Assembly: GCA_965215005.1 (NCBI GenBank)
Contig: CBDCCZ010000018.1
Location: forward strand, 192,001-256,000
From: Kofleriaceae bacterium
Lineage (GTDB): Bacteria; Myxococcota_A; Polyangia; Haliangiales; Haliangiaceae
Direction: 5' to 3'
DNA: 64,000 bases
Of the stretch, positions 46,276-59,080 are shown piece by piece. Position numbers and translations under genes: made by a program. Under the pieces are notes generated by a model, which worked only from the letters and a program-made list of their open reading frames with translations, was not told where the DNA came from and did no database searches. Position 1 is the first letter of the stretch. Each line of letters opens with the position of its first letter.

Positions 46276-46432
46276 CGCTAGCTCTTCCTCCTGTGCCGGC
46301 TCGAGTGTCCTGTCGACGTCGAGCCCCAGGGGATCTTATCAGCTTCGCCCTCTGCACCACCCCTTCGCACCCCACCCCGCTAGCGACGAGCCGGAGAGCC
46401 GCTGGCACGAGCGGCTACGTTAGAATGCAGCG

Positions 46433-47770
46433 ATGAGCGCGAGCGAGTCAGGTATTTGGGTAACACGTGACGGAGGGCAGCCGCGTGTCGTCCTGCGCGC
46501 TGTGCGCATCGAAATCGTCAATGGACCGGGCTCGGGCACCTCGATGACGTTTCAGCAGCCACGCATTCGAGTGGGCGCGCTGCCGGAGAATGACATCGTG
46601 CTCGAGGATCCTCGCGCCTCCGGCGTGCACTTCGAAGTGATGCTCACCGAGACCGGGCTGCGCGTGCGCGATCTCAACTCGACCAATGGCACCGTGGTCG
46701 AAGGGGTTCGTATCGTCGATGGCTACGTTCAGCCGCTACAGCGGATCACCGCCGGACGAACGCAGCTGATGATCGTGCCGACCGGCGCAAGCCACGAGCT
46801 GCCACTCGCCACAGGCGCTGAGTTCGCCGACATCGTCGGTAGCAGCATCGCGATGCAGCGCGTGTTCGGAATGCTCGGCCCGGTGGCGCCAACCGATGCG
46901 ACGGTGCTGCTAACCGGCGAGACGGGCACTGGCAAAGAGGTCGTCGCAGAAGCGATCCACGGCGCCTCGCCGCGAGCCAATGGACCGTTTGTGGTCGTCG
47001 ATTGCGGCGCCATCCCCGCGACGCTGTTCGAAAACGAGCTCTTCGGCCACAAACGCGGCGCGTTCACTGGCGCCGACAGCGACGCTCCTGGGGCTTTCGA
47101 GCGCGCTCACGGTGGCACTCTCATGCTCGACGAAATCGGCGAGCTGCCACTCGACCTTCAGCCCAAGCTGCTTCGCGTCGTGCAGTCGCGGACGGTGCAG
47201 CGCGTCGGCGGGAGCAAGCGCGTGCCGTGTGACGTGCGCATCATCGCCGCGACCAACCGCGATCTACTGCGCGAAATCAATGGCGGCGGGTTTCGCGCCG
47301 ATCTCTACTATCGGCTCGCGGTCGCCCACATCGAGCTGCCACCGCTGCGTGAGCGCGATGGCGACATCGCGCTGCTCGCCCACTACTTTGCCAACGCCAT
47401 CACCGAGGATCCTGGGAGACAACTTCCAGCGGAGCTGATCGAGCAGTTCGAGCGGTACTCGTGGCCCGGCAATATTCGCGAGCTTCGCAACGCGGTCGAG
47501 CGCGCTCTCCTGCTTCCGCACCTGCCCCCTAAGCTCGGCCACGGCGTCTCGGCCGCGCCCGACGGCCCCGGATTTTGGGTTCCGGTCGACACCGCTATCG
47601 GATTCAAAGAAGCGAAACAACAACTCATCGATGAGTTCGACCGGCAGTACGTCACGCAGCTGCTTGATGAGAATCAGCGGAACGTTGCCCGTGCCGCGCG
47701 TGCCGCCGGAATCGACCGCGCGTCATTGCACAAGATCATGGCCCGCGTTGGCATCCAGCGGCCCCAATGA
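46433..47770 (+). CDS. FHA-domain sigma54-dependent enhancer-binding protein
   Basis: FHA ([12 protein letters not shown]), [29 protein letters not shown]-terminal Fis-type HTH. Confidence 0.93.
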
Positions 47771-48679
47771 TCCTGCTGCATCCAGCTCCTGCGCCGGCGG
47801 CTGAACCTCAACCACGGTTCCCACAGGGGGAAGCTCAGTCGTCGCCGCGTTGCCAATCTGCGCTTGCACGAAGATCAGCTGCGAAGCGGAATCGACCACC
47901 GCGGCCACCGAGGTGATCGAAGCCTGCCAAGACGTCGCGCCAAGATGGGCCGTTACCGGGGCGCCAACGACAAACGCGGGCGCCCGCTCTGGCCGCACGG
48001 CGAAGCGCAAATCGCGCTCCTGGGACATCAGCTCGACGATGGGCTGCTCGGCCGCAACGGTTGCGCCAGCATCGAAGCGCCGTGCCGCGACATGTCCGGC
48101 CAACGGCGCGCGTAAGGTTGCGCGCTCACGCAGCTGCGCGAGCTGATCGCGAACCGTGCGGTGACGCTCGATTCCCGCGAGGCTTCGCTCGAGCTCCGCC
48201 TGCCCTTGCGCCCGCGCCGACCGCGCATCGCGCAGCTGATTGCTCGCCGCCGCCTGCGCGCGCACCAGCTTCTCGACCGCCCTCACCTCTTGACGTGCCG
48301 TGCGCAACGCGACCCGAGCTTGGGCGGCAATTGCTTGCGCCTCACGCAATGCGCTATCGGCCGCTTCGAGCTCAGCATCGAGCTCTTCGGTCTGCAGGGT
48401 CGCCAATACCGCTCCCTCGGCGACGAAATCACCGACCTCGACGCGCATTTCTTCGACCCGTGCTGGCACCGGCAACGAGACGGCTACCTGGCGTCGCGCC
48501 ACGATGACGCCGATGAATCGCTCCACGCCCCTGCGCGCCGTCGTGGCCACAGGTCGCATCTGCCGCGTCGTAGGTGCCTCGAGCGGAGTGGCCTCACACC
48601 CGGCGATCATCGCGCAGCCGAGCAGTATCGGCAGGTGCCGCGCCACGCCATACCACGGTGAGTCGATGATCCTCTTCAT
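47723..48679 (-). CDS. Efflux periplasmic adaptor (HlyD/MFP) lipoprotein
   Basis: IAGC lipobox, lipoyl half-motifs ([19 protein letters not shown]), coiled coil. Confidence 0.85.
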
Positions 48680-50939
48680 TGGCTTCCTTCCAGTCATGCT
48701 CGGGCGCCGTCGGACGAGACCGTCCAGGAGGTGCAGGGTTTTTGCGAGAAGCGCCGAGCTGCGCGCGCACGAGTCGGGCGTAGCGTCCTCCCGCGGCCAG
48801 CAGCTCATCGTGGGTGCCTCGCTCGACGATGCGACCGCGATGCACCACCACGATGAGGTCCGCATCGACCACCGTGCTGAGGCGGTGGGCGATCTGGATG
48901 CGGGTCATGCGGAGCCGCTTGAGCTGACGCACCACGCGCGCCTCCGTCTCCGCATCGAGCGCGCTCGTGGCTTCGTCGAGCAGCAGCGCCACGGGGCGAG
49001 CGAGCAGTGCCCGCGCCAGCGCCAGTCGTTGCCGCTGACCGCCCGATAGCGACTGCCCGCGATCAGCGAGCGGAGTCTCGTAGCCCATCGGCAACTTGGC
49101 GATGTCATCGTGAATGCAGGCGGCCTTGGCCGCCGCAACGACGCGATCGAGGTCCGCATTCGGATCGGCCAGCGCGATGTTGTCGCGAATCGAGGTATCG
49201 AAGAAGTAGGGGTCTTGCGGCACCGTCCCCAGCTGCGCCCGAACCGCACGAAGATCGAGGCGTTCGAGCGGGTGCTCATCGAGCAAGATGCGTCCCGCGG
49301 TTGGCGCGTACAAGCCGAGTAGCAGCGCCGCAAGGGTTGATTTGCCCGATCCAGACTCACCGACGATGGCGACGTTGGTGCCCGCGGGAATCTGCAGCGA
49401 CGTGTCGCGGATGACGTCGGGACCGGCATCGCGATAGCGAAATGAAACCTGGTCGAGCTCGATTGCCCCCGTGAGCCGCGTGATCTTTCCCGGCTCCGAC
49501 TGTTCGGGCTCCACATCGAGAACGTCCTTGAGTCGGTCGAGGTGACCTCGTACCTGTTGCAGGGACAGCGCGCTCGCCACCAAGTTTCCAAGTGGCTCGA
49601 GGAACGAGCCGGCGAGCGCGTTGACCGCCAGCATGGTGCCAAGCGACAGCTCGCCGTGGACCACGCGCACCGCGCCGACGCTGAGGATTGCCAGCGGCGC
49701 GGCCGTGCGGAGGGCGCCGAGCAGCGCATCTACCGTGGCGCGCGACCGGCTCATGTCCAACCCGGCGTTGAGCATGTCAGCCAAATCATGGCTCCAACGC
49801 TCCACCGCCCGCTGCTCGGCTCCTGCTAGCTTCAGGGTGCCGATTGCCGACAGCGCTTGCACCAAGTACGACTGCGAGCGTGCGTTGGCATCGACCACAC
49901 TCGCCTCGAGATCCTCAAAGCGGCGCCGCGTCACGAGAAGGATCACGAGCTGCAGGATTCCAAATCCCGCCACCAGCGCGGCCACGATGGCGTCTGCAAT
50001 CAAGATGATGATCAGATAGAAGACGACGAGCCCGCCGTCGATGAGCGCCGACAACGTCTGCGACGTGAGTAGCTCGCGGATGGTTTGATTGCTGGCGATG
50101 CGCGACAGCAAATCTCCGGTCGAGCGGCGCTGAAAAAAACTATACGGCAAGCTCACCAGATGGCCGACGAAGCCGAGCGTCATCCGGGTATCCAAGTCGG
50201 TGCGCATTTGCAGCAGCAGATGCGCGCGGACCAGCGACGAGAGCATCTTGAACACGACCAGCGTTGCGAGGCCGAGGCCGATCAGGGTGAGCATGTCGAG
50301 ATCGCCCTGGGGAACCACGCGGTCGACGATCAAGCCGGTGAGCAGCGGGACGGCGAGCGCGAACACCTGCAGCAGTGCTGACATCGCAAGGATTCGCCCG
50401 AGTCGCGCGTTCATCTGTCGCAAGAACGCGCGCACCAGGCCGCCGCTCGGCAGCCGGCGCACGAAGGTGTCACCCGGCGCTAGCTCCAGAGCGATTCCGG
50501 TGAATGAACGCGACACCGCCTCGCGGCTCAGCGCGCGCCGCCCGCGCGCCGGATCCACGACGTGCACAAGGCCCCGAGCCACCCGCTCGAGCACCACGAA
50601 GTGATTGAATTCCCAGTGCAGGATGGTGCCCGCCGGCGCATGTTCGAGCTCGTCGAGCTCGAGCGACACGCCGCGTCCGCGCAAGCCGAATCGCTCACCG
50701 GCGGCAACGATGCCGCTGGCGCTGGTGCCCGCGTCGCTGGTCCCCGCCGCAACCCGCACCTCCCCCAGCGGTACGTGGCAGCCGTGATGCGCCAGCACCA
50801 TTGCCAGACACGCGGCGCCGCAGTCGGCAGCCTCCATCTGCCGCACAATCGGAATCCGCCGCCGGCGCGGCACGAGCTTGGTGAGAGCGGGAAATCGCTT
50901 CGTATCGACAGGCGCCAAGGCAGGCGGCGAATTGGCCAT
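48594..50939 (-). CDS. Peptidase-containing ABC transporter (C39 PCAT), double-glycine peptide exporter
   Basis: QMEAADCGAAC, HWEFNHFVV, ABC membrane domain, GESGSGKST, LSGGQRQR, LDEATSALD. Confidence 0.95.
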   Translation of the reverse strand: MANSPPALAPVDTKRFPALTKLVPRRRRIPIVRQMEAADCGAACLAMVLAHHGCHVPLGEVRVAAGTSDAGTSASGIVAAGERFGLRGRGVSLELDELEHAPAGTILHWEFNHFVVLERVARGLVHVVDPARGRRALSREAVSRSFTGIALELAPGDTFVRRLPSGGLVRAFLRQMNARLGRILAMSALLQVFALAVPLLTGLIVDRVVPQGDLDMLTLIGLGLATLVVFKMLSSLVRAHLLLQMRTDLDTRMTLGFVGHLVSLPYSFFQRRSTGDLLSRIASNQTIRELLTSQTLSALIDGGLVVFYLIIILIADAIVAALVAGFGILQLVILLVTRRRFEDLEASVVDANARSQSYLVQALSAIGTLKLAGAEQRAVERWSHDLADMLNAGLDMSRSRATVDALLGALRTAAPLAILSVGAVRVVHGELSLGTMLAVNALAGSFLEPLGNLVASALSLQQVRGHLDRLKDVLDVEPEQSEPGKITRLTGAIELDQVSFRYRDAGPDVIRDTSLQIPAGTNVAIVGESGSGKSTLAALLLGLYAPTAGRILLDEHPLERLDLRAVRAQLGTVPQDPYFFDTSIRDNIALADPNADLDRVVAAAKAACIHDDIAKLPMGYETPLADRGQSLSGGQRQRLALARALLARPVALLLDEATSALDAETEARVVRQLKRLRMTRIQIAHRLSTVVDADLIVVVHRGRIVERGTHDELLAAGGRYARLVRAQLGASRKNPAPPGRSRPTAPEHDWKEANEEDHRLTVVWRGAAPADTARLRDDRRV

Positions 50940-52940
50940 CTAGAAGATCCTCTCGAGTCCTGGGAACAAGCTAATGAGGAGCGACTCCGACCGAACCTCG
51001 ATGTCGACGGTGGCTGCCATCCCGTGATGAAAACGATGGGTGACGCCGTCGATCACGAATCCTTCGCTCGGCAACGCCACCCGCACGAACACCACCGCGG
51101 TGGTGATCGGAACGGCGTCGCCGAGCAGGCTGCCGAGACGACGAGCAGCCGCCCCCGGACCAAGCGCCTCATCGCCAACTTCGACGATCGGCAGCTCGAG
51201 ACGAACACCGCGATGGCCAGCAAGGGAAACACGGGCGCGATCGCCAAGCTCGATGAGAGGACGACGAGCGGCGGGAATGGCCGCCAAGACGCTCATTTCG
51301 GGGTCGGCAGCGACAACGGAGAGGATGGGCGCGCCGGCGGCGACGGTAGCTCCGCTGCGCAAGAGCACTTCGCCGGCCACGCCCGAACGAGGAGCGCGAA
51401 TCGAGTGTCGCTCTACCGCGCGTTCGGCCTGCTCACGCCGTGCACTCAGCTCCACGAGTGCCTGGCCTGCAACCGCGTCTCGCGGATCCATGAGACGCTC
51501 GATGAGGCGACGGTCGAACTGATGCTGGAGCGCGGCAAGCTCGGCTCGGGCACCCTCGTCGCGCAACTGCGCGACCACCTGCCCTGCTTGCACGCGCTCG
51601 CCCGGTTCGACGACGACAGCTTCGAGAACGCCGCTTAGCTCGGCAAGCGCGTCGCTGCGCTCATCAGCGACGACGACGGCAACGCCGCTCGCATACTCGC
51701 CGACCCGACCGACGCATAGATAGACCGCCGCGGCGGCGAAGAACGCGACGATGATCCAGTAGACGATGTTGACCCACGGTGAGTGCACGCGAACAACGTG
51801 CCCGCGGTCCCGCCGGCGCCGGTGCGCGTCGATCGCCTCAGGTCGAAACACGCTGGCTTCGGAGGCGACCGGTTGCGCCTCCAGCCCCCAGGAAAGCGCA
51901 TCGAGGAGAGGCCCACAGGCGGCGGCGAAATCGGCCGCGATGGCACGTTCGCGCGCATCGAAAGGAGCGCCACGCCCGTCTCTAGCCGCGATCCACACCG
52001 CGTGGAGCTCTTCGGCGCCATGGACCGGCTGCACCAGTAGCCGCGCCTTTGGGCCGAGGCCGAGGTCGTCGACCGCCGCGCAATATTGCGGCGCATCACC
52101 GGCCCGTTCGACCGCAAGGCAAACGCCTCGCCGGAGCGCCTCGCCAGCGAGACCGAGCAGGCCCTCGACCTCGAAATCATCACCGGGCTCATCTGCCTCG
52201 TACGCCAGAGTTGCTGCCTCCGCATCGACATAGAGACAACGCGCGCGATCGGCATCGATCAGTTGGGCGAGCTCACGGGCCATGACGCCGCTGCTGTCGC
52301 GCGTGCTTGGCTGCATCGCGACACGCCGCAGCGCAGCGCCGATCTTACCGCGGCCCCGGTCGGCTGGCGGTACCGCATCCACAGCCGTGGGGCTCCATTC
52401 TGCAACCGGGTCGACGCGCACCAGCGGCGCAGTGGGCTGCTCGGCGATCGGTAGCAGCTCGAGTGGGTTTGCGCTGGGGGCCGATGGCCACGATCTCGCT
52501 GCCGCGATGGCGCCGGCACCTGCCACTTGGCCGAACGGTGGGGACGGCTGTCTCACGCTTGGGAGTCCGCTAGAATCCATCCCGCGGTCGCTTGCGGCTT
52601 CGAGCAACGCGCTGCGAAGCGCGTGCGGCGACAAACTCCGGGACAACGGCCGCGCGCGCCGGGAGGGAAGCACCCCAGCAGCGTCGATGAGCGCGAACAC
52701 CGGGCCACACTGCCGCGTGCACAACCACTCAATCAGCGCTGCAGCGTGCTCGGTGGGCGCGCCGACGACGATGGCGTTGAACCCACGCTGACCGACAGCG
52801 GCAACGGCTTGCGCGGCGGTCTCGACGCCAACGACCTCACACGGCGCGAGGCGCTCGCGTAGCCACGACCAGGTTCTTTCGTCAGCGTCGCACACCAGAA
52901 ACGAAGCGAGCGGAGCCGGTGGTCGCGCCGGACGAGCCAT
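50940..52940 (-). CDS. HlyD-family secretion adaptor with N-terminal receiver-like and GAF domains
   Basis: GAF-like region (ADRARCLYVD...LLVQPV...PFDARE), VFRPEA motif, TM, lipoyl/coiled-coil HlyD body; abuts the PCAT start. Confidence 0.85.
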   Translation of the reverse strand: MARPARPPAPLASFLVCDADERTWSWLRERLAPCEVVGVETAAQAVAAVGQRGFNAIVVGAPTEHAAALIEWLCTRQCGPVFALIDAAGVLPSRRARPLSRSLSPHALRSALLEAASDRGMDSSGLPSVRQPSPPFGQVAGAGAIAAARSWPSAPSANPLELLPIAEQPTAPLVRVDPVAEWSPTAVDAVPPADRGRGKIGAALRRVAMQPSTRDSSGVMARELAQLIDADRARCLYVDAEAATLAYEADEPGDDFEVEGLLGLAGEALRRGVCLAVERAGDAPQYCAAVDDLGLGPKARLLVQPVHGAEELHAVWIAARDGRGAPFDARERAIAADFAAACGPLLDALSWGLEAQPVASEASVFRPEAIDAHRRRRDRGHVVRVHSPWVNIVYWIIVAFFAAAAVYLCVGRVGEYASGVAVVVADERSDALAELSGVLEAVVVEPGERVQAGQVVAQLRDEGARAELAALQHQFDRRLIERLMDPRDAVAGQALVELSARREQAERAVERHSIRAPRSGVAGEVLLRSGATVAAGAPILSVVAADPEMSVLAAIPAARRPLIELGDRARVSLAGHRGVRLELPIVEVGDEALGPGAAARRLGSLLGDAVPITTAVVFVRVALPSEGFVIDGVTHRFHHGMAATVDIEVRSESLLISLFPGLERIF

Positions 52941-52952
52941 GCAGCGGCCCTT

Positions 52953-52968
52953 TGCACCGGTCGTGCCT
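52953..52968 (-). promoter_or_regulatory. Sigma54 -24/-12 promoter of the export operon
   Basis: AGGCACGACCGGTGCA; nearly identical to the precursor promoter at 57565. Confidence 0.75.
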
Positions 52969-53020
52969 CGCTAGATGTCGTGTGATTTCGCTCGCCAAGC
53001 GCGAAACGTGACTGCGCGGC

Positions 53021-53056
53021 GTTGCCGGCTCGCAACGACTGTAGGCGCGCGGCGAC
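53021..53056. promoter_or_regulatory. Tandem enhancer (UAS)-like boxes
   Basis: GTTGC-N6-GCAAC, 4 nt, GTAGG-N6-GCGAC. Confidence 0.6.
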
Positions 53057-53110
53057 GCCCACTGCGCGCGCCAACGACGAGCGGTATAGTCTTTGCTCAT
53101 TGCGGTCGCG

Positions 53111-56100
53111 ATGCGATGGGAGTCCCCGAAAGGACGCGTAACTGCTGAAGAGCTGGCCGAAACTGTAGCTACCTCGGATACACAAGGTGTAACCAAAGAC
53201 CCAGGTCAGGGTCATCATCCCCCGCCGGACCTACCTAATCCTGGGGATCGGGTCGGCCGCTACCGGCTGGGCTCGGTCATCGGTAGCGGCGGCATGGGCT
53301 GCGTGATGCGCGCCGAGCACGTCGATCTAGGTCGCCAGGTGGCGATCAAGTTCATGCTCACAGCCAAAGAGCAGGCCGAGGCAAACGTCGTGCGCTTCTT
53401 TCGCGAAGCACAGCTCGTCAACCGCATTCGCCACCCGCACGTCGTCGACGTCACCGATATCGACTGGCTACCCAGCGGCGCCGTCTACATCGTCATGGAG
53501 CTGCTGCACGGGCGCTGCCTGCAACGGGCGATCAGCACCGGACCACTGCCGCTGGGTCTCATTCAACGCATCGCGCACCAGTCGGCGGCGGCGCTATCGG
53601 CGGTGCACGCGGCGGGCATCATTCATCGCGACATCAAGCCCGGCAATTTGTTTCTCTGTGATGATCAGGCTGAACCACACCTAAAGATCCTCGACTTTGG
53701 TGTCGCCAAGCTCGGGGCCGACAGCGTTGCAAAGGCAGACGTTCTCACCGTGGCGGGCGGAGTCGTCGGCACGGTCGCCTACATGGCTCCAGAACAAGCA
53801 CGCGCTGAAGAACTCGATGCCCGCGCCGACCTGTTCTCGCTCGCTGCGACGCTCTACGAAGCAGCCACCGGATATCGGCCGTTTCGCAGTCATGCGCTCG
53901 GCGCGTTGGTCCACGAGCACACCACGTACGTGCCGCCGCGGCTTTCACAGGTTTTAGGCGCCGGCGTCGTGCCGGCGGCCCTCGATGAGACCATCGCCAG
54001 TGCGCTTCAGGTCGATCCCCACCGACGCCCCCCCTCCGCCGCCGCATTTGCCGATGCGCTCTCCGGATCCACCCCGCCAGCACGCTCGCTATCGCTGCCG
54101 GCGCCTCGGCCGCGGGCTGCCCGTAGCTCCCGACACACCGCAGTCGCCGTATGCCTTCACGCGCATGGCGCTGGGGCGGCGTTACGTGCGATCGCCGAGG
54201 CCACCGAGGCTGCCGGCGGGCTCGTGCTCGAGCGAAAGGCGAGCGCGCTCACCGCACTATTCGGAGTTCCCGACGTCGACAGCAGCACGTTTGCCCGCGC
54301 GCTCGAGGTTGCCGAAAGCGTTCGCGACGTGAGCATCGTGCTCGAGCTCGGTCGTGTGCGGGTCCGGCGAGCTCCCACAGGCATCGTGGCGACAGGCTCG
54401 CTGCTCACGCGGCTAGCGCGGCTAGCTAGCATCACGTGCCCAGGCCTGCGACTTGGTCCCAACGCGCACCGCTGGGTGTATCCGCTCGCGAGCGGTGATG
54501 CCGAGATGCCGCGGCCCGACGCACGGCCATCGCATCACGGTGAGCTCGTTCGTATGGTCAGCGCCGCTCTGGCTGGCGATGACACCGCCTGCCACATCGT
54601 CATCGACGGGCCGCCAGGCGCGGGCACTACCTACAGCTTGCATACGGCGCGGGAGAAATTCGACGCCTCGGCCCGGTGGCACGCCGCTCGCGCGCGACCG
54701 GGCGATCGCGGTTTCTACGCCACTCTGACGCACCTCGTCCCTGCCCTGGCCGAGCAGCTGCGGGCAGCGCCGACGCGACACGATGAACGAATTGATGCGT
54801 GGCTAACCGCGGAGGTGAGCTCCGGGCCGTTGGTCATTGCCCTCGATGACGCCGAATACGCCGATGAAGCCAGCATGGCGACGCTGCGGCGCCTCGCGGA
54901 GCTCGGCCGTGGAAAGCCGATTGCCGTGATCGTGGCGGGTCACCAACTCGACCACGACGGCGGTCAGCGACTCTCACTCGAGCCGCTCGCCGACCGCGCA
55001 GCAACGCAGCTCGCCGCCGCCCTCGCTCCAGCGGCCTCACGCGCCGAGATTGATGCGGTCGTAGCACGCGCAGCGGGCTGTGCTCGTTACGTCGTCGAGC
55101 TCGCGCGAGACCTCGATGCGAATGGCTCCGGCGCCGAAGAGTCAGCAACATCCCCGGCGCTCGAGCTGGCGACACGAGCGCATCTCGACGCCATGCTTCC
55201 CCACGCCCGACGCATCTACGAAATCGTAGCGATTGCGCAACAGGCGGGCTGGGCGGAGCTATTGGTCGCGCTGGCCGTCGCCCGCGGCTCGACCGCCGAC
55301 GAGGCACGCGAAGCGCTCTGGGAGCTCGAGGAGTGCGGCGCGATCGTGGCGGCGGAGGACGGACCTGCGACTTCTGAGCGATTCGTCGCCGCTGTGCCGG
55401 TTCTCGCCGAGACGGCGTATCGCGAGCTCAGCAGCGAACAGCGCCGCGCCCTGCACCTCGATTTGGCCACCCGCCTCGAAGCGGAGGGTGAGGCCGAAGC
55501 AGTTCCCGCAATTCCGTCTTTGCTCGCCGCGGCCCGCCAGTATGCTGCCGCTGGCGCCATCGATCACGCCGCTCGCTGCGACCGCCGCGCAGGGGCCGCA
55601 CTGCTGGCCGCCGGCGATCATCGCGGTGCGCACGCTGCACTGGTGCGCGCCATCGACGCCAGCGCGCCGTCGAGCGAGCTGCTCGAACAAGCCGGCGACG
55701 CGGCGATGGTTGCCGCCGGTCTGGACGCTGCGCAAGACCTCTATGCGCGGGCCCTCGACCTATCGGAACCCGACGAGCTCACCCGCGCACGCCTATGGCG
55801 CAAGCTCGGCGACTGCGCGACCCAGCGTGGAGACAACGCTGTGGCGGCGGCGTACTACGAGCGGGGGATTGCAGCGCTGGCTCCCGATGGCGAGCTCACG
55901 CCGAGAGCAGAAGCCGACGCGGTGACCGCGGCAGAGCTTTACGCCGCGCTGGGATGGCTGCGCGGCTATCAGCTCGGCGATTTCGAGATTGGCTCGCAAC
56001 TCGGAGCTCGCGCGCTCGAGCTATTGGAGGGAACCGAGCACCAGCAGGCGCTCGCGCACGCTTTGTCGCGGTTGGGTGGCTGCTACATGCGAGGGGGGCG

Positions 56101-56797
56101 CTACGCGGAACAGCTCGCGTGCAACGAGCGGACTCTCGAGGTGTCCATCGGCCTCGGTGATACCTGGATGGAGATGATCGCTCGACTCAACCTCGGAATT
56201 ACCTACTTGACCACCGGAAGGATTACCGAAGCGCGCGCTCAAACCACCCGCGCCTTGGCAATGGCGCGACGCACCGACTCGGTTCGCGTCGAAACCGTGG
56301 CCACCAACAACCTTGGCGCCATCGAGCTCGAAGCCGGAGATCCGTATCGCGCACTCGCTCACTTTGAACGCGCCGCAGAGCTGGTGCTCCGCTCGGGTTA
56401 CCGCTCGGTGCTACCAGAGCTCCACCGCGTCCGCGCTCGCGCCTACGCAGCCATAAACGATCTCCACCGCGCCAACCGCGACGCCCGACGCAGCCGCGCG
56501 CTAGCAACGCAACTCGAGGCCAGCTTCGAGGCCGGGCTTGCCGCGCGCGTGTTGGCGCTGATCGCGCTCCGGCTCGACAACCCGCAGCGGGCGAGCGCGT
56601 TACTCGACGAAGCGGCGGCACAAATCGGCACGCGCGACCCGCTCGAGTGCGCCAGGCTGAGCGTCGCGCGGGCGCTGCTTGCGCGCGCGGAGGGCGCCCC
56701 CGACGCCGATGACCAACTCGCCGCCGCGCACTCCGAGCTCGAGCGCCTCGGCCTCGCCCATGAGATCGCCGCGTTTGCAGCCAACAGCATCCGCTGA
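53111..56797 (+). CDS. Ser/Thr kinase - degenerate AAA/STAND NTPase - TPR multidomain protein
   Basis: GSGGMG, VAIK, HRDIKPGN, DFG and YMAPEQ motifs; Walker A-like GPPGAGTT and Walker B VIALDD; C-terminal TPRs; start uncertain. Confidence 0.88.
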   Translation: MRWESPKGRVTAEELAETVATSDTQGVTKDPGQGHHPPPDLPNPGDRVGRYRLGSVIGSGGMGCVMRAEHVDLGRQVAIKFMLTAKEQAEANVVRFFREAQLVNRIRHPHVVDVTDIDWLPSGAVYIVMELLHGRCLQRAISTGPLPLGLIQRIAHQSAAALSAVHAAGIIHRDIKPGNLFLCDDQAEPHLKILDFGVAKLGADSVAKADVLTVAGGVVGTVAYMAPEQARAEELDARADLFSLAATLYEAATGYRPFRSHALGALVHEHTTYVPPRLSQVLGAGVVPAALDETIASALQVDPHRRPPSAAAFADALSGSTPPARSLSLPAPRPRAARSSRHTAVAVCLHAHGAGAALRAIAEATEAAGGLVLERKASALTALFGVPDVDSSTFARALEVAESVRDVSIVLELGRVRVRRAPTGIVATGSLLTRLARLASITCPGLRLGPNAHRWVYPLASGDAEMPRPDARPSHHGELVRMVSAALAGDDTACHIVIDGPPGAGTTYSLHTAREKFDASARWHAARARPGDRGFYATLTHLVPALAEQLRAAPTRHDERIDAWLTAEVSSGPLVIALDDAEYADEASMATLRRLAELGRGKPIAVIVAGHQLDHDGGQRLSLEPLADRAATQLAAALAPAASRAEIDAVVARAAGCARYVVELARDLDANGSGAEESATSPALELATRAHLDAMLPHARRIYEIVAIAQQAGWAELLVALAVARGSTADEAREALWELEECGAIVAAEDGPATSERFVAAVPVLAETAYRELSSEQRRALHLDLATRLEAEGEAEAVPAIPSLLAAARQYAAAGAIDHAARCDRRAGAALLAAGDHRGAHAALVRAIDASAPSSELLEQAGDAAMVAAGLDAAQDLYARALDLSEPDELTRARLWRKLGDCATQRGDNAVAAAYYERGIAALAPDGELTPRAEADAVTAAELYAALGWLRGYQLGDFEIGSQLGARALELLEGTEHQQALAHALSRLGGCYMRGGRYAEQLACNERTLEVSIGLGDTWMEMIARLNLGITYLTTGRITEARAQTTRALAMARRTDSVRVETVATNNLGAIELEAGDPYRALAHFERAAELVLRSGYRSVLPELHRVRARAYAAINDLHRANRDARRSRALATQLEASFEAGLAARVLALIALRLDNPQRASALLDEAAAQIGTRDPLECARLSVARALLARAEGAPDADDQLAAAHSELERLGLAHEIAAFAANSIR

Positions 56798-56887
56798 TCT
56801 CTCATATTACTACTGGTCCAAAGAGCACCTAGCGCTAGCGCGGCACGAAGCGAGGCTCCAGACGGCATGTTCTCGCAAATAGGGCTA

Positions 56888-56914
56888 ATGCCCTCGCACT
56901 AAGCGCGAGGGCAT
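56888..56914. terminator. Hairpin downstream of precursor B / kinase gene
   Basis: ATGCCCTCGC-actaagc-GCGAGGGCAT, 10-bp perfect stem, 17 nt past the stop of 56932-57138. Confidence 0.65.
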
Positions 56915-56931
56915 CAAAGGACAGATTTCTT

Positions 56932-57138
56932 TTAGAACTTGCCGCCGCTGTAGAGGCCAGTACCGGTAACTTCGAAGTGAGCTTCCGCCGCCCGGCCGTG
57001 AGCCGCGAACGCCTCGCCACGGTTGTCCCACGCCCAGTCAGCCGCGCCCGTGATCGCTTCGCTAGCCGCGAGCTCGAGCAAGAACCTACCGACACCTCCG
57101 CCGGCGACATTTACAGTATTCAGATCGATGGTCTTCAT
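56932..57138 (-). CDS. Putative double-glycine-leader precursor peptide B (68 aa)
   Basis: MKTIDLNTVNVAGG leader plus 54-aa core; GGAG RBS, own sigma54-like promoter and downstream hairpin. Confidence 0.7.
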   Translation of the reverse strand: MKTIDLNTVNVAGGGVGRFLLELAASEAITGAADWAWDNRGEAFAAHGRAAEAHFEVTGTGLYSGGKF

Positions 57139-57202
57139 TGCTATCTCCCGTTCCTTTAGAAGGTTTGAGCCGCGACACATTCGCGACGTTGACCAAAGCC
57201 TT

Positions 57203-57218
57203 TGCGAACAACGGACCA
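57203..57218 (-). promoter_or_regulatory. Sigma54-like promoter of precursor B
   Basis: TGGTCCGTTGTTCGCA with GG-N10-GC spacing. Confidence 0.55.
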
Positions 57219-57270
57219 ATCGCCTACCTCGTAAACATCAGTCGTCCCGTCCCCTCCCTCCAGACTCGAT

Positions 57271-57306
57271 GTTGCCCGCAAGCCTCAGATGTCGCCAGCC
57301 GATGAC
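57271..57306. promoter_or_regulatory. Tandem UAS-like boxes (degenerate)
   Basis: GTTGC-N6-GCCTC, 4 nt, GTCGC-N6-ATGAC. Confidence 0.45.
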
Positions 57307-57477
57307 GTAAATGAGAGTCTGCACCGGATGCGTGATGAATAGTCCCTTCTCCTTATTAACGCGTGATTATGAAATTCGACTGGATCCTCAAACGGGCATA
57401 CGAGTGGTCTACGAATCTTCAGCCTTGGGCGAGGTGAATGGTGACGGCACGCACTGGCGCCGTCTCACCTATCGCGA

Positions 57478-57514
57478 GTTGCCAGGCGGCGACAGTCCGT
57501 CGCTCACCTGCAAC
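57478..57514. promoter_or_regulatory. Tandem UAS-like boxes
   Basis: GTTGC-N6-GCGAC, 5 nt, GTCGC-N6-GCAAC. Confidence 0.65.
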
Positions 57515-57564
57515 ATCCCACGCCGCTAGAACGGCTAGAGGGGCTTACGAATAGGCATTTCGCC

Positions 57565-57580
57565 TGGCACAACCGGTGCA
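57565..57580 (+). promoter_or_regulatory. Sigma54 -24/-12 promoter of the precursor A-JmjC operon
   Basis: TGGCACAACCGGTGCA. Confidence 0.8.
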
Positions 57581-57622
57581 ATCCCCCAACTCGTTCAATC
57601 CACACCTTCAGAGGAGTAAACT

Positions 57623-57838
57623 ATGAAGAACCAGCGAAAGTCTCTCTCTCTCCAAGATCGCGCGCAGCTCCACGATGCCGCGCTCGATACCGTCTCCGGT
57701 GGCACGACGATGCCGCGCATGCCACCGGTCGGTCCAGAGCCGTTTCCGTGGGGCATCATCATCGAGCCTCCTCCGACTGGAGGGCTGCCGTTCCCCACGC
57801 CTCCCGGATTTCCCTACGGCATACCGGGACTGGGCTAA
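57623..57838 (+). CDS. Putative RiPP precursor A: double-glycine leader plus Pro-rich core (71 aa)
   Basis: GAGGAG RBS; leader ends LHDAALDTVSGG (L-12, L-7, V-4, GG); core TTMPRMPPVGPEPFPWGIIIEPPPTGGLPFPTPPGFPYGIPGLG. Confidence 0.85.
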   Translation: MKNQRKSLSLQDRAQLHDAALDTVSGGTTMPRMPPVGPEPFPWGIIIEPPPTGGLPFPTPPGFPYGIPGLG

Positions 57839-57841
57839 CCG

Positions 57842-59080
57842 ATGGTCGCGGGTTCGTCCGTCGGAGCTCGAGAAGCGCACGATGAGGCTCCGGCGGCGGC
57901 CCTCGCCGCCCTGTTCGGTAGCGACGGCGCACGAGCTTTCGCCGGCCCACATTGGCCGCATCACCCGTTCGTCGTCCATCGCACGCTCTCGCAGCTGCCG
58001 AGCGCACTGCGGGCACCGCTGCTACTCGACCCGCGCGCCCTTGCTGCCGTCTACCGCGGCACCGTCGAGGTAACGAACGGTCGCGCGGGCCAATTTCGCC
58101 TCAGCGGCGTCGATCCGAATGTCTACTTTGAAGTATTAGGCCTTGCGACTCGCTTTAGCGAGCTCCAGCAATACGTGCCCCAAGCAGCATCGTACTTGCG
58201 CGAGCTCGAGGCCGCCCTGGGCGCGCCGAATGGCTGCGCGAGCCTTCATGCGTTTGTTAATCCGGCTCATGTGGGTCTCGCCGCGCACTGCGATCCGGCG
58301 GAGCATATCGCTGTGCAACTCGCCGGCAAGAAGCGGTTCAAGGTGCTGCGCAACGAGGTTCCCTATGCGGCAGTCTCCCATGGTGCTCGTCGCCCCCCTT
58401 CACGCCGCACACTAGCGACGATTGGTGGTCATCTGCCGCGCTGGGAGCGACTTCCCGAGACCGCAGAGACCATTGACCTCGAGCCGGGCTCGGTCCTATT
58501 CATGCCGCGCGGCACGTATCACGAGACTCTCGGCGGTGAAGGCGAGCCATCCGTCACGCTCGTCATTCAACTCGCAGTTCCCAGTGCAGCAGACGTCTTC
58601 TTAGACTATCTACGCGACTATTTGGCGCAGGCAACACCTTGGCGCCAGCCGCTCTTACACACCTGGCGCGGCGCCTCTCCGGCCGCACAGGCGCACCTTC
58701 GAGACAGTCTCGATGACCTTGCCGAGCGACTCCTCCGCCTATCGCCTCAACAAATGATCGATGCGCGCTCTCCTGCACTCACGCTCGATTACGCACGATT
58801 GGTTCGCGCGCCGGGCGTCGAGGTCCGCGTCACAATCGACGACGACCAAATGTGCGTCCAGTTCGTAGCCGACGATCGCAGAGCCAGCGCCCCGGTCGAG
58901 CTGGCAGCCGAGCTGAGCAGCGTCTTCGACTGGCTGCTCGCACAAACCGACCCATTCTCGCTCGCGGCCGCGCAACAGGCCCTCCCAGAGTGGGAGCCGG
59001 ACGCTATCGAGGCAGTGGCGCAGTTTCTGCTCGCGCGTGGTGCGTTGCTCTCGCTTCCCATCGAGCCGTTCAATGCGTAA
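57842..59080 (+). CDS. JmjC/Cupin_4 (YcfD/ROX-like) Fe(II)/2-oxoglutarate oxygenase
   Basis: AHCD..EHIAVQLAGKKRF and LEPGSVLFMPRGTYH give the HxD...H facial triad; C-terminal winged-helix-like region. Confidence 0.88.
   Translation: MVAGSSVGAREAHDEAPAAALAALFGSDGARAFAGPHWPHHPFVVHRTLSQLPSALRAPLLLDPRALAAVYRGTVEVTNGRAGQFRLSGVDPNVYFEVLGLATRFSELQQYVPQAASYLRELEAALGAPNGCASLHAFVNPAHVGLAAHCDPAEHIAVQLAGKKRFKVLRNEVPYAAVSHGARRPPSRRTLATIGGHLPRWERLPETAETIDLEPGSVLFMPRGTYHETLGGEGEPSVTLVIQLAVPSAADVFLDYLRDYLAQATPWRQPLLHTWRGASPAAQAHLRDSLDDLAERLLRLSPQQMIDARSPALTLDYARLVRAPGVEVRVTIDDDQMCVQFVADDRRASAPVELAAELSSVFDWLLAQTDPFSLAAAQQALPEWEPDAIEAVAQFLLARGALLSLPIEPFNA

Follow-up and report, generated by a model that had tools for sequence, protein, structure and literature searches.

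Introduction

Gram-positive bacteria have bacteriocin regulons induced by peptides, in which a single regulator and a single C39 exporter are combined with several dispersed double-glycine peptides and a repeated promoter box, and in which control is exerted by histidine kinase/response regulator pairs on sigma70-type promoters. Boxes of the TyrR/NifA/NtrC type are dyads with GT...AC ends, which are bound by Fis-type helix-turn-helix (HTH) domains and paired on one helical face. Phosphothreonine-binding FHA domains carry Gly-Arg, Ser-x-x-His and Asn-Gly motifs, and an FHA domain is present in the activator MXAN_4899. That sigma54 governs natural products in myxobacteria is already known: natural-product promoters of M. 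xanthus are controlled by Nla28, HsfA and MXAN_4899 (PMC7910581, PMC4880591, PMC12773805). The targets given there are polyketide and nonribosomal peptide genes, and Nla28 binds 8-bp direct repeats, CT(C/G)CG(C/G)AG, which are often intragenic. In the NmpR regulon of M. xanthus (PMC11841059), several operons for oxygen use are governed by a receiver-domain sigma54 activator with its histidine kinase. Its enhancers are dyads (GCGCA-N5-TGCGC, 14-15 nt between sites), two to three per promoter, the proximal one lying near the -24/-12 element.

The locus described here lies in a window (the whole stretch of DNA analysed) of 64,000 nucleotides. It resembles the NmpR regulon in its sigma54 activator, in two dyad sites per promoter with the proximal one near -24/-12, and in several operons joined in one regulon; it resembles the Nla28, HsfA and MXAN_4899 systems in that a sigma54 activator would directly govern secondary-metabolite genes in a myxobacterium. 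However, the genes concerned encode ribosomal peptides and their exporter, and the sites, dyads of 16 bp, lie between genes and keep a fixed short distance. Read directly, these boxes correspond neither to the NmpR dyad nor to the Nla28 repeats. As in the TyrR/NifA/NtrC type, the boxes are GT...AC dyads paired on one face, but their inner bases differ. With the Gram-positive regulons it would have in common a single regulator, a single C39 exporter, double-glycine peptides at scattered loci and a recurring promoter box; it would differ from them in relying on sigma54, on an activator with an FHA domain and on a Ser/Thr kinase. Among the papers searched (mostly non-subscription, supplements apart), none dealt with the sites of FHA activators or with a sigma54 regulon of double-glycine peptides.

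Results and Discussion

Gene Content of the Export Locus

The genes considered are the following (Pfam matches in brackets).

46433-47770, plus strand: FHA-domain sigma54 activator (FHA, Sigma54_activat), in the order FHA, AAA+ with GAFTGA, putative C-terminal Fis-type HTH
47723-48865, minus strand: closing gene of the export operon, for a membrane-fusion protein of the HlyD type; its real start probably comes later than 48865
48594-50939, minus strand: peptidase-containing ABC transporter, C39 plus ABC (Peptidase_C39, ABC_membrane, ABC_tran)
50940-52940, minus strand: opening gene of the export operon, for a long membrane-fusion protein of the HlyD type that is extended at its N-terminus (HlyD_3, HlyD_D23)
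53111-56797, plus strand: Ser/Thr kinase-AAA-TPR protein, divergent from the exporter (Pkinase, AAA_22, TPR)
56932-57138, minus strand: precursor B, 68 aa, double-glycine-type leader
57623-57838, plus strand: precursor A, 71 aa, double-glycine leader, proline-rich core
57842-59080, plus strand: JmjC/cupin oxygenase (JmjC_2, Cupin_8)

Neither precursor matched any Pfam or NCBIfam family. A leader matrix trained solely on peptides of relatives was used to rank 90 small ORFs located behind 586 sigma54-like sites. Precursor A came first with a score of 19.1 and precursor B fourth with 8.4; an ORF on contig C1 (8.5) took the third place, and a precursor on contig C14 scored 15.2. The combination of a C39-ABC transporter with precursors carrying hydrophobic residues at -12/-7/-4 and GG is that of double-glycine/PCAT systems, and the transporter would cleave and export these peptides. 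The JmjC/cupin oxygenase, starting 3 nt after precursor A, is likely its modifying enzyme. Relatives of the long HlyD-type protein are found order-wide, in 108/147 genomes.

Three Promoters Share One Architecture

The predicted promoter elements and boxes are listed below. Cores were scored with a hand-set sigma54 matrix, and box fit was read directly against GT(T/C)GC-N6-GC(A/G)AC; the sigma54 consensus given in PMC7910581 is TGGCACG-N4-TTGC(T/A).

52952-52967, minus strand: -24/-12 element of the export operon, 11.4 bits
53021-53036: exporter-proximal box, perfect dyad GTTGC-N6-GCAAC, fit 10/10, gap 53
53041-53056: exporter-distal box, fit 8/10, period 20
53083-53097, plus strand: -24/-12 candidate ahead of the divergent kinase gene, 10.1 bits
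57203-57218, minus strand: -24/-12 element of precursor B, weak, 9.1 bits
57271-57306: box pair of promoter B, proximal 57271-57286 and distal 57291-57306, fit 8/10 each, period 20
57478-57514: box pair of promoter A, distal 57478-57493 and proximal 57499-57514, fit 10/10 each, period 21
57566-57581, plus strand: -24/-12 element of precursor A, 16.1 bits

A preliminary description of this DNA had proposed that the exporter, precursor A and precursor B promoters share one sigma54 core and a tandem enhancer. The three core strings were indeed found at 52967-52952 (minus strand), 57566-57581 (plus strand) and 57218-57203 (minus strand), and the six boxes occupy the positions claimed, with periods of 20, 21 and 20 and with 53, 51 and 53 nt between the proximal GCAAC and the -24 GG (exporter, A and B, respectively). 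The spacing GG-N10-GC is exact in all three, B being marginal by score; having both the lowest core score and the lowest box fit, B is the weakest promoter on both counts. Each promoter thus carries two dyad sites above -24 in helical phase, the arrangement of an enhancer (UAS). The string GGCAC[AG]ACCGGTGCAA occurs in exactly two copies in the 6.2-Mb genome, which are the exporter and precursor A promoters. The sites are intergenic and upstream of genes, with 27, 57 and 79 nt from GG to ATG for exporter, A and B, respectively. Since this distance is only 27 nt for the export operon, a near-leaderless mRNA is predicted; genome-wide, the GG-to-ATG distance peaks at 27-28 nt. The genome has a single rpoN (one Sigma54_DBD gene). 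The same letters were seen in a run carrying this DNA, an agreement that is not independent because the run is probably the source sample.

The chance test permitted motif discovery, that is, any 5-mer dyad with a spacer of 5-7 and a period of 20/21 at a common distance was allowed. The triple of the window reached 49/60, and 0/3000 random triples, drawn from the remaining intergenic sigma54-like promoters (417 total), equalled it, the best reaching 46. A model built from the three promoters placed these three, C14+131808 and C1-22185 as the top five among 6252 sigma54-like sites, all five being intergenic with scores of 27.2-44.3 (next best 24.9). When each promoter was left out in turn, it was recovered at rank 1, 2 or 6 of 6249 sites, rank 6 being that of promoter B. 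The proposal that both peptides and the exporter form one regulon is supported by the chance test, by this recovery and by the independent members outside the window. As to background frequency, on which the proposal had been made to depend, the paired and spaced form is rare, whereas a lone loose box is frequent (270 strand matches), so that rarity is confined to the former. Promoter duplication as the source of the likeness was rejected: the linkers between box and -24 are dissimilar among the three promoters (97, 123 and 59 shuffles, each of 300, matched their score), which argues against a recent event.

The Predicted Reader of the Boxes

The FHA activator at 46433, which had been named as the protein binding the boxes, is the likely reader as predicted from sequence. 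Its AAA+ domain matches PF00158 with E 7e-67 and has an intact GAFTGA by alignment. The C-terminus gave no Pfam HTH_8 match of its own at E<=0.001, and it aligns without gaps to the HTH region of relatives, one of which matches HTH_8. The FHA fold was matched by Pfam, and Ser-x-x-His and Asn-Gly-Thr are present; the Arg of the Gly-Arg motif is missing (GALPE), so that the domain does not show the full set of phosphothreonine-binding motifs, while exporter-linked relatives keep GR in the alignment.

This protein is the sole one of ~50 genome activators (~10 with FHA domains) located near these promoters; the rest are separated by >70 kb from those on C14 and C1. The best activator match in 29 other genomes adjoins an exporter homologue in 19, does not in 5, and was viewed narrowly in 5. 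In two trees (one quick method and FastTree only), the activator falls inside a clade of exporter-linked activators with support of 98; its branch is long, with 48-53% identity to its own clade and to the neighbouring clade alike. No close relative was found, the best matches being 39-57% in genome contigs and 30-42% in metagenomes, generic activators only (160 loci).

The promoters of exporter-linked relatives' clusters carry a 16-bp G-Y...R-C dyad at gaps of 43-44, 54-55, 64-65, 74-75 and 84-86, phased with R 0.74 at 10-10.3 bp (37 distinct genus-class-gap values, in which kin are not independent). The relatives' matrix misses the window boxes (-2.8 to 4.6 bits) and is uneven between genera, with 12/17, 3/9 and 13/85 when held out and 11-14/285 in the background. 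In genome G145, activator, kinase and divergent exporter adjoin a lanthipeptide gene, and GTCGC-N7-GCGAC pairs occur with a period of 21 at gaps of 53/74 and 97/118. An N6 box at a gap of 45-59 was found in 0/29 other exporter-adaptor loci (1.5-kb flanks; mostly another cluster type), the best having at least 2 mismatches. The exact pattern of a single box plus promoter gave 33 matches in 147 genomes of the order (29 outside G000) versus 19 for the reversed control, with mixed downstream genes. Across 401 genomes of the class, the loose tandem N6 form was by eye not commoner than its control, seven of its matches being examined closely, and the loose N7 form fell by eye mostly in coding DNA.

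The same box pair, at a gap of 52-53, also precedes a DUF2834-like gene in four g128 genomes and in G331, where this gene adjoins a histidine kinase and a receiver-domain activator. An unrelated activator thus seems to read the motif there, and the motif does not name its reader. Linkage, tree and the relatives' motif therefore speak for the activator at 46433, and this unrelated locus with the same boxes and spacing leaves the assignment unproven. The regulon might be real and yet be read by another of the ~50 activators, such as a receiver-domain protein or the FHA paralogue at C3:260180, which we regard as unlikely though deserving consideration. The identical architecture beside a two-component activator in other genomes would fit such a reader, as would the recognition helix of the paralogue (GIDRMSIHKML), near-identical to that of the activator at 46433; moreover, M. 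xanthus activators have been reported as hetero-oligomers, judging from the title of Volz 2012 as cited in PMC4880591. Yet the two-component activator has no clear orthologue in G000 (best 42-46%, tied), from which the DUF2834-like target is absent as well, and none of the other activators has a high-scoring promoter nearby. The helix of the paralogue belongs to the RMSI type seen in the relatives, and the motif of that type is unlike the window boxes.

Probable Extent of the Regulon

The C14 promoter lies 27 nt ahead of an operon encoding three JmjC proteins, an NHLP-like precursor (the match falls below the cut-off) and a DUF4135/LanM-like protein, and this RiPP-like operon has no exporter. 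The C1 promoter precedes the double-glycine-type ORF mentioned above. Within the window, the divergent kinase gene probably shares the box pair of the exporter, with 28 nt from GG to ATG and the boxes 26 and 46 nt upstream. The preliminary description contained neither the likely kinase promoter, with its GG at 53083, nor any member on another contig.

It is very unlikely that co-regulation is limited to precursor A and the exporter, with B, C1 and the kinase site as chance look-alikes in GC-rich DNA. The low cores (9.1, 9.1 and 10.1 bits, respectively) and the start of the C1 ORF 258 nt from GG would be in line with such an origin, as would non-members reaching at least 30 bits in 3/36 shifted-distance windows. 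However, the kinase site itself accounts for one of these three matches and both others lie near the same helical face, the C1 ORF ranked third among the 90 by leader score independently of its promoter (rough joint chance 0.007), and B was recovered when left out. That the boxes are operators of a repressor or of a non-sigma54 regulator, located by chance above sigma54-like strings, is hardly credible: short dyads with a two-turn period are in general used by many regulator families, but the distance to the -24 GG is fixed in five promoters, the relatives' dyads step by 10 bp and the linked activator has an intact GAFTGA.

About 10 further double-glycine-type ORFs and a second exporter cluster (C4) are without a box pair. 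No sign of autoregulation of the activator was seen, as a GGCACG string upstream, near 46406, has no GC at the -12 spacing. At C10:186569, ahead of an operon for cbb3 oxidase, one perfect box lies at a gap of 51. This site was rejected as a member, since it has no second box and its palindrome coincides in part with a near-perfect NmpR site, next to a globin/kinase/activator set. A 95-aa ORF behind C10+202514 resembled a double-glycine precursor by eye and was rejected at a leader score of -0.4.

Proposed Mechanism and Significance

We consider it probable that the three promoters, together with one or more on another contig, sharing -24/-12 elements and pairs of 16-bp dyads (GTTGC-N6-GCAAC) that end 51-53 and 72-73 nt upstream, are jointly switched on by the FHA activator at 46433. 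The distance of the boxes from the -24 GG corresponds to the near end of the 80-150 bp given in PMC7910581. From the general working of sigma54 activators we infer that two activator dimers would bind on one DNA face, two helical turns apart, and oligomerise, and that the GAFTGA loop would act on the sigma54 complex, five to seven turns downstream, to open it. Switched on in this way would be precursors A and B, the JmjC enzyme and the C39 exporter with two adaptors, in addition to the exporter-less C14 operon and probably the kinase and the short C1 ORF. With members at several loci, peptides encoded in different places would share a single exporter. The FHA domain is the probable entry point of the signal, and the co-regulated kinase would be its obvious partner; this is the weakest step.

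More tentatively, and on present data rather doubtfully, the circuit of Ser/Thr kinase, FHA activator and sigma54 might be an order-wide master switch for double-glycine peptide export, a counterpart, assembled from eukaryote-like parts, of the quorum regulons for Gram-positive bacteriocins. It would extend to exporter-less RiPP clusters on other contigs and control its own kinase by feedback, and the 16-bp site would change together with the recognition helix (RMSIYK with GYnnA-CCnnGG-TnnRC; RASLHK with GTTGC-N6-GCAAC). If so, orphan peptide clusters could be assigned to their exporter by means of the sites.

Myxobacteria-like genomes contain dozens of sigma54 activators, few of them with known sites. 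The locus provides a precise predicted site for one such activator and a link to ribosomal peptide export rather than to polyketides, and through its noncoding DNA a RiPP-like operon that lies on another contig and has no exporter is connected to one. The relatives' natural series of helices and sites offers material on how activators keep apart, and the predicted site is a possible handle to wake these clusters in a laboratory host.

Architecture of the three promoters

The cluster lies on contig C18 of the Kofleriaceae bacterium genome (G000; 6.2 Mb, 65% GC, 93% complete), which has one rpoN copy, about 50 sigma54 activators and, by our own gene calls, 68 Ser/Thr kinase-like genes, and whose gene content suggests a myxobacterium.

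Features of the cluster (window coordinates)
46433..47770 (+): FHA activator, converging on the export operon
52952-52967 (-): promoter of the export operon (-), encoding a long HlyD-type adaptor, a C39-ABC transporter and a second adaptor
53111 (+): Ser/Thr kinase, divergent from the export operon
57203-57218 (-): promoter of precursor B (-), same cluster
57566-57581 (+): promoter of precursor A (+), same cluster, followed by a JmjC enzyme

The preliminary description had given sequences, coordinates and distances for three sigma54-type promoters and for the boxes paired above each of them (16-bp dyads related to GTTGC-N6-GCAAC), all of which were confirmed on the sequence. The 16-nt core common to the exporter and A promoters occurs at only these two places in the genome. 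On a matrix set by hand from the consensus, the -24/-12 core of A reaches 16.1 bits, that of the exporter 11.4 and that of B 9.1, and the consensus printed in the accessible text of PMC7910581 agrees with the one used. Since a single box is common in the genome, the whole architecture was tested in a way that allows for motif discovery. Of all 5-mer dyads, GTCGC with spacer 6 suited the three promoters best, with 49 of 60 matches, a score that none of 3000 triples drawn at random from the other intergenic sigma54-like promoters reached (best 46). The linkers of the three promoters are unrelated in sequence, so that common ancestry of the promoters does not account for their likeness. Over all promoters the motif gave only a small peak, as expected for a small regulon.

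Genome-wide, the distance from GG to ATG at strong intergenic sigma54-like sites is most often 27 or 28 nt, a sharp peak of 34 and 21 cases against 0-9 at other distances. Many sigma54 mRNAs are accordingly predicted to be near-leaderless, with leaders of 2-3 nt.

Predicted regulon members outside the cluster

A promoter model was trained on nothing but the three window promoters and applied to 6252 sigma54-like sites. Its top five were these promoters, C14+131808 (31.9 bits) and C1-22185 (31.6 bits), followed at rank 6 by a site inside coding DNA (24.9 bits). When each promoter was left out in turn, A, exporter and B ranked 1, 2 and 6 of 6249, which together with the chance test supports the proposal that both peptides and the exporter form one regulon.

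The C14 promoter has a 14.8-bit core, a perfect proximal box at a gap (nucleotides from box to -24 GG) of 53 and a weaker distal box at a period (box-to-box step) of 21, and lies 27 nt before the first of the following operons. C1-22185 has a weak core, followed by a 64-aa ORF 258 nt away. With a matrix derived from 68 leaders of other genomes and applied to 90 small ORFs behind 586 sites, A ranked 1, the C1 ORF 3 and B 4; the C14 precursor, labelled NHLP-like from NCBIfam matches below cut-off, scored 15.2.

Further loci in G000
C14:131835-137846: RiPP-like operon; three JmjC proteins, NHLP-like precursor, stand-alone DUF4135/LanM-like dehydratase domain
C10:202435-216707: biosynthetic operon; HMGL-like, heme-oxygenase-like, aminotransferase, several ATP-grasp, PhzF-like and MFS genes
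C4:23746-32074: second exporter cluster, with LanB-type dehydratase
C31:37635-38109 (-), C31:31796, C14:110312, C48:14842, C4:4293: further double-glycine-type small ORFs, none with a full box pair

The C14 precursor comprises 110 aa with ENWG repeats in the core; two divergent kinases accompany the operon, and no exporter was seen in the 18 kb read.

In a shifted-distance control, a non-member scored at least 30 bits in 3 of 36 windows. Among these, a -24/-12 site at 53083 (+) stands 28 nt ahead of the kinase ATG and would use the exporter's boxes jointly. The others, C10+202514 and C18-15611 (gap 81), may be either real or due to chance. C10+202514 precedes the C10 biosynthetic operon, its -24/-12 site scores 12.2 bits and its box pair has gap 42; this operon is a possible further member. 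A perfect single box before a cbb3 oxidase operon was rejected, as an overlapping NmpR-type site explains it (PMC11841059, accessible text). An NmpRSTU-like set (globin, histidine kinase, activator; C10:183167-188767) is divergent from this operon, which carries NmpR-type sites.

The full box pair is absent at about ten other double-glycine candidates and at the C4 exporter cluster; the regulon does not take in all double-glycine peptides of the genome. Three of the further small ORFs form a class II bacteriocin-like trio, another encodes a proline-rich peptide resembling precursor A, and several adjoin kinases. The C4 cluster has a short C39 transporter frame of 474 aa and, upstream, a degenerate activator-like ORF; no precursor was seen directly beside the cluster.

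The candidate activator

A shared regulator very probably stands behind these promoters, and it is likely to be the 46433 protein. This protein carries an FHA domain, an AAA+ domain with GAFTGA and, by alignment, a C-terminal helix-turn-helix; by coordinates, every other activator lies more than 70 kb from the C14 and C1 sites and more than 40 kb from the window promoters. In 29 other genomes, the best activator match adjoins an exporter homologue in 19 and does not in 5, the remaining 5 having been viewed narrowly; such counts include the unpublished genomes G036 and G037. Among 40 fetched loci, 31 were picked for known presence of both genes, and the exporter was present in four of the nine unbiased ones. 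Quick IQ-TREE and FastTree trees placed the 46433 protein in the exporter-linked activator clade on a long branch (support 98), apart from the paralogue on C3; no close relative was found in the collections searched.

The FHA domain lacks the motif arginine, which is usually needed for phosphothreonine binding, and kinase input to the activator is therefore only a guess. Kinase genes are frequent enough that about 10% of the genome falls within 4 kb of one, so that kinase adjacency is only modest evidence.

Exporter-linked loci of relatives have a sigma54 promoter at each of the outer-membrane channel, two surface-type proteins, several double-glycine peptides and the exporter. De novo search of these promoters yielded a 16-bp dyad, GYnnA-CCnnGG-TnnRC, with gaps clustering at 43-44, 54-55, 64-65, 74-75 and 84-86, in steps of roughly one helical turn (R 0.74 across 37 distinct values, kin not being independent). 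In length and in its GY...RC ends the dyad agrees with the window box but differs in the inner bases; it does not score the window boxes, and the recognition helix reads RMSIYK in relatives versus RASLHK in the 46433 protein. Held-out tests of the relatives' motif were uneven (12/17, 3/9 and 13/85 versus 11-14/285 background promoters).

A module conserved in family f1 (L175-L205, L211-L214) combines the FHA activator and exporter with an outer-membrane efflux channel, two surface-type proteins and 2-5 double-glycine peptides, whose Met/Gln-rich cores are unusual (up to nine Met in a run); no modifying enzymes were seen in these loci.

Related architectures in other systems

In G145, a genome of another family, lanthipeptide genes are accompanied by a kinase, a divergent exporter and an FHA activator that belongs to a different clade. 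Paired GTCGC-N7-GCGAC boxes (period 21) lie at gaps 53 and 74 before the precursor (proximal box 8/10 by eye) and 97 and 118 before the exporter. The precursor box also has an opposite-strand -24/-12-like site at gap 54, directed into the activator gene at its 3′ end (L111:4365-4449 (+)).

The window's own box pair recurs at gaps 52-53 and 73 before a DUF2834-like gene in G360, G372, G384, G348 and G331, adjoining a histidine kinase and a receiver-domain activator; the reader therefore cannot be told from the motif alone. As no clear orthologue of this two-component system was found in G000, the FHA protein stays the best candidate. The DUF2834-like gene encodes a membrane protein (L355-L358, L361) and in three genomes lies next to a RiPP cluster that has a C39 exporter; the precursors of this cluster showed no sigma54-like site of at least 12 bits.

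Implications

Sigma54 activators with paired dyad sites (PMC11841059) and sigma54 control of M. xanthus natural-product genes (PMC7910581, PMC4880591, PMC12773805) are established according to the accessible text of these papers; that of PMC3951391 lists myxobacterial C39 exporters and does not mention sigma factors or FHA. The regulon is a variation on established sigma54-activator control; no description of an FHA-activator site or of a sigma54 regulon for double-glycine peptides was found in the literature covered, largely main texts of open papers. Sequence, spacing, rarity and linkage are observed, and the regulon is a real and well-supported prediction.

For binding, transcription, export and signal we infer a circuit in which, most likely, two activator dimers would occupy the two dyads of a pair, two turns from each other, and then oligomerise. 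Five to seven turns further downstream, on the same face of the DNA, the oligomer would open the sigma54 complex. This would co-induce the peptides and their modifying enzymes together with exporter and kinase, and one exporter would process peptides from C18, C14 and C1.
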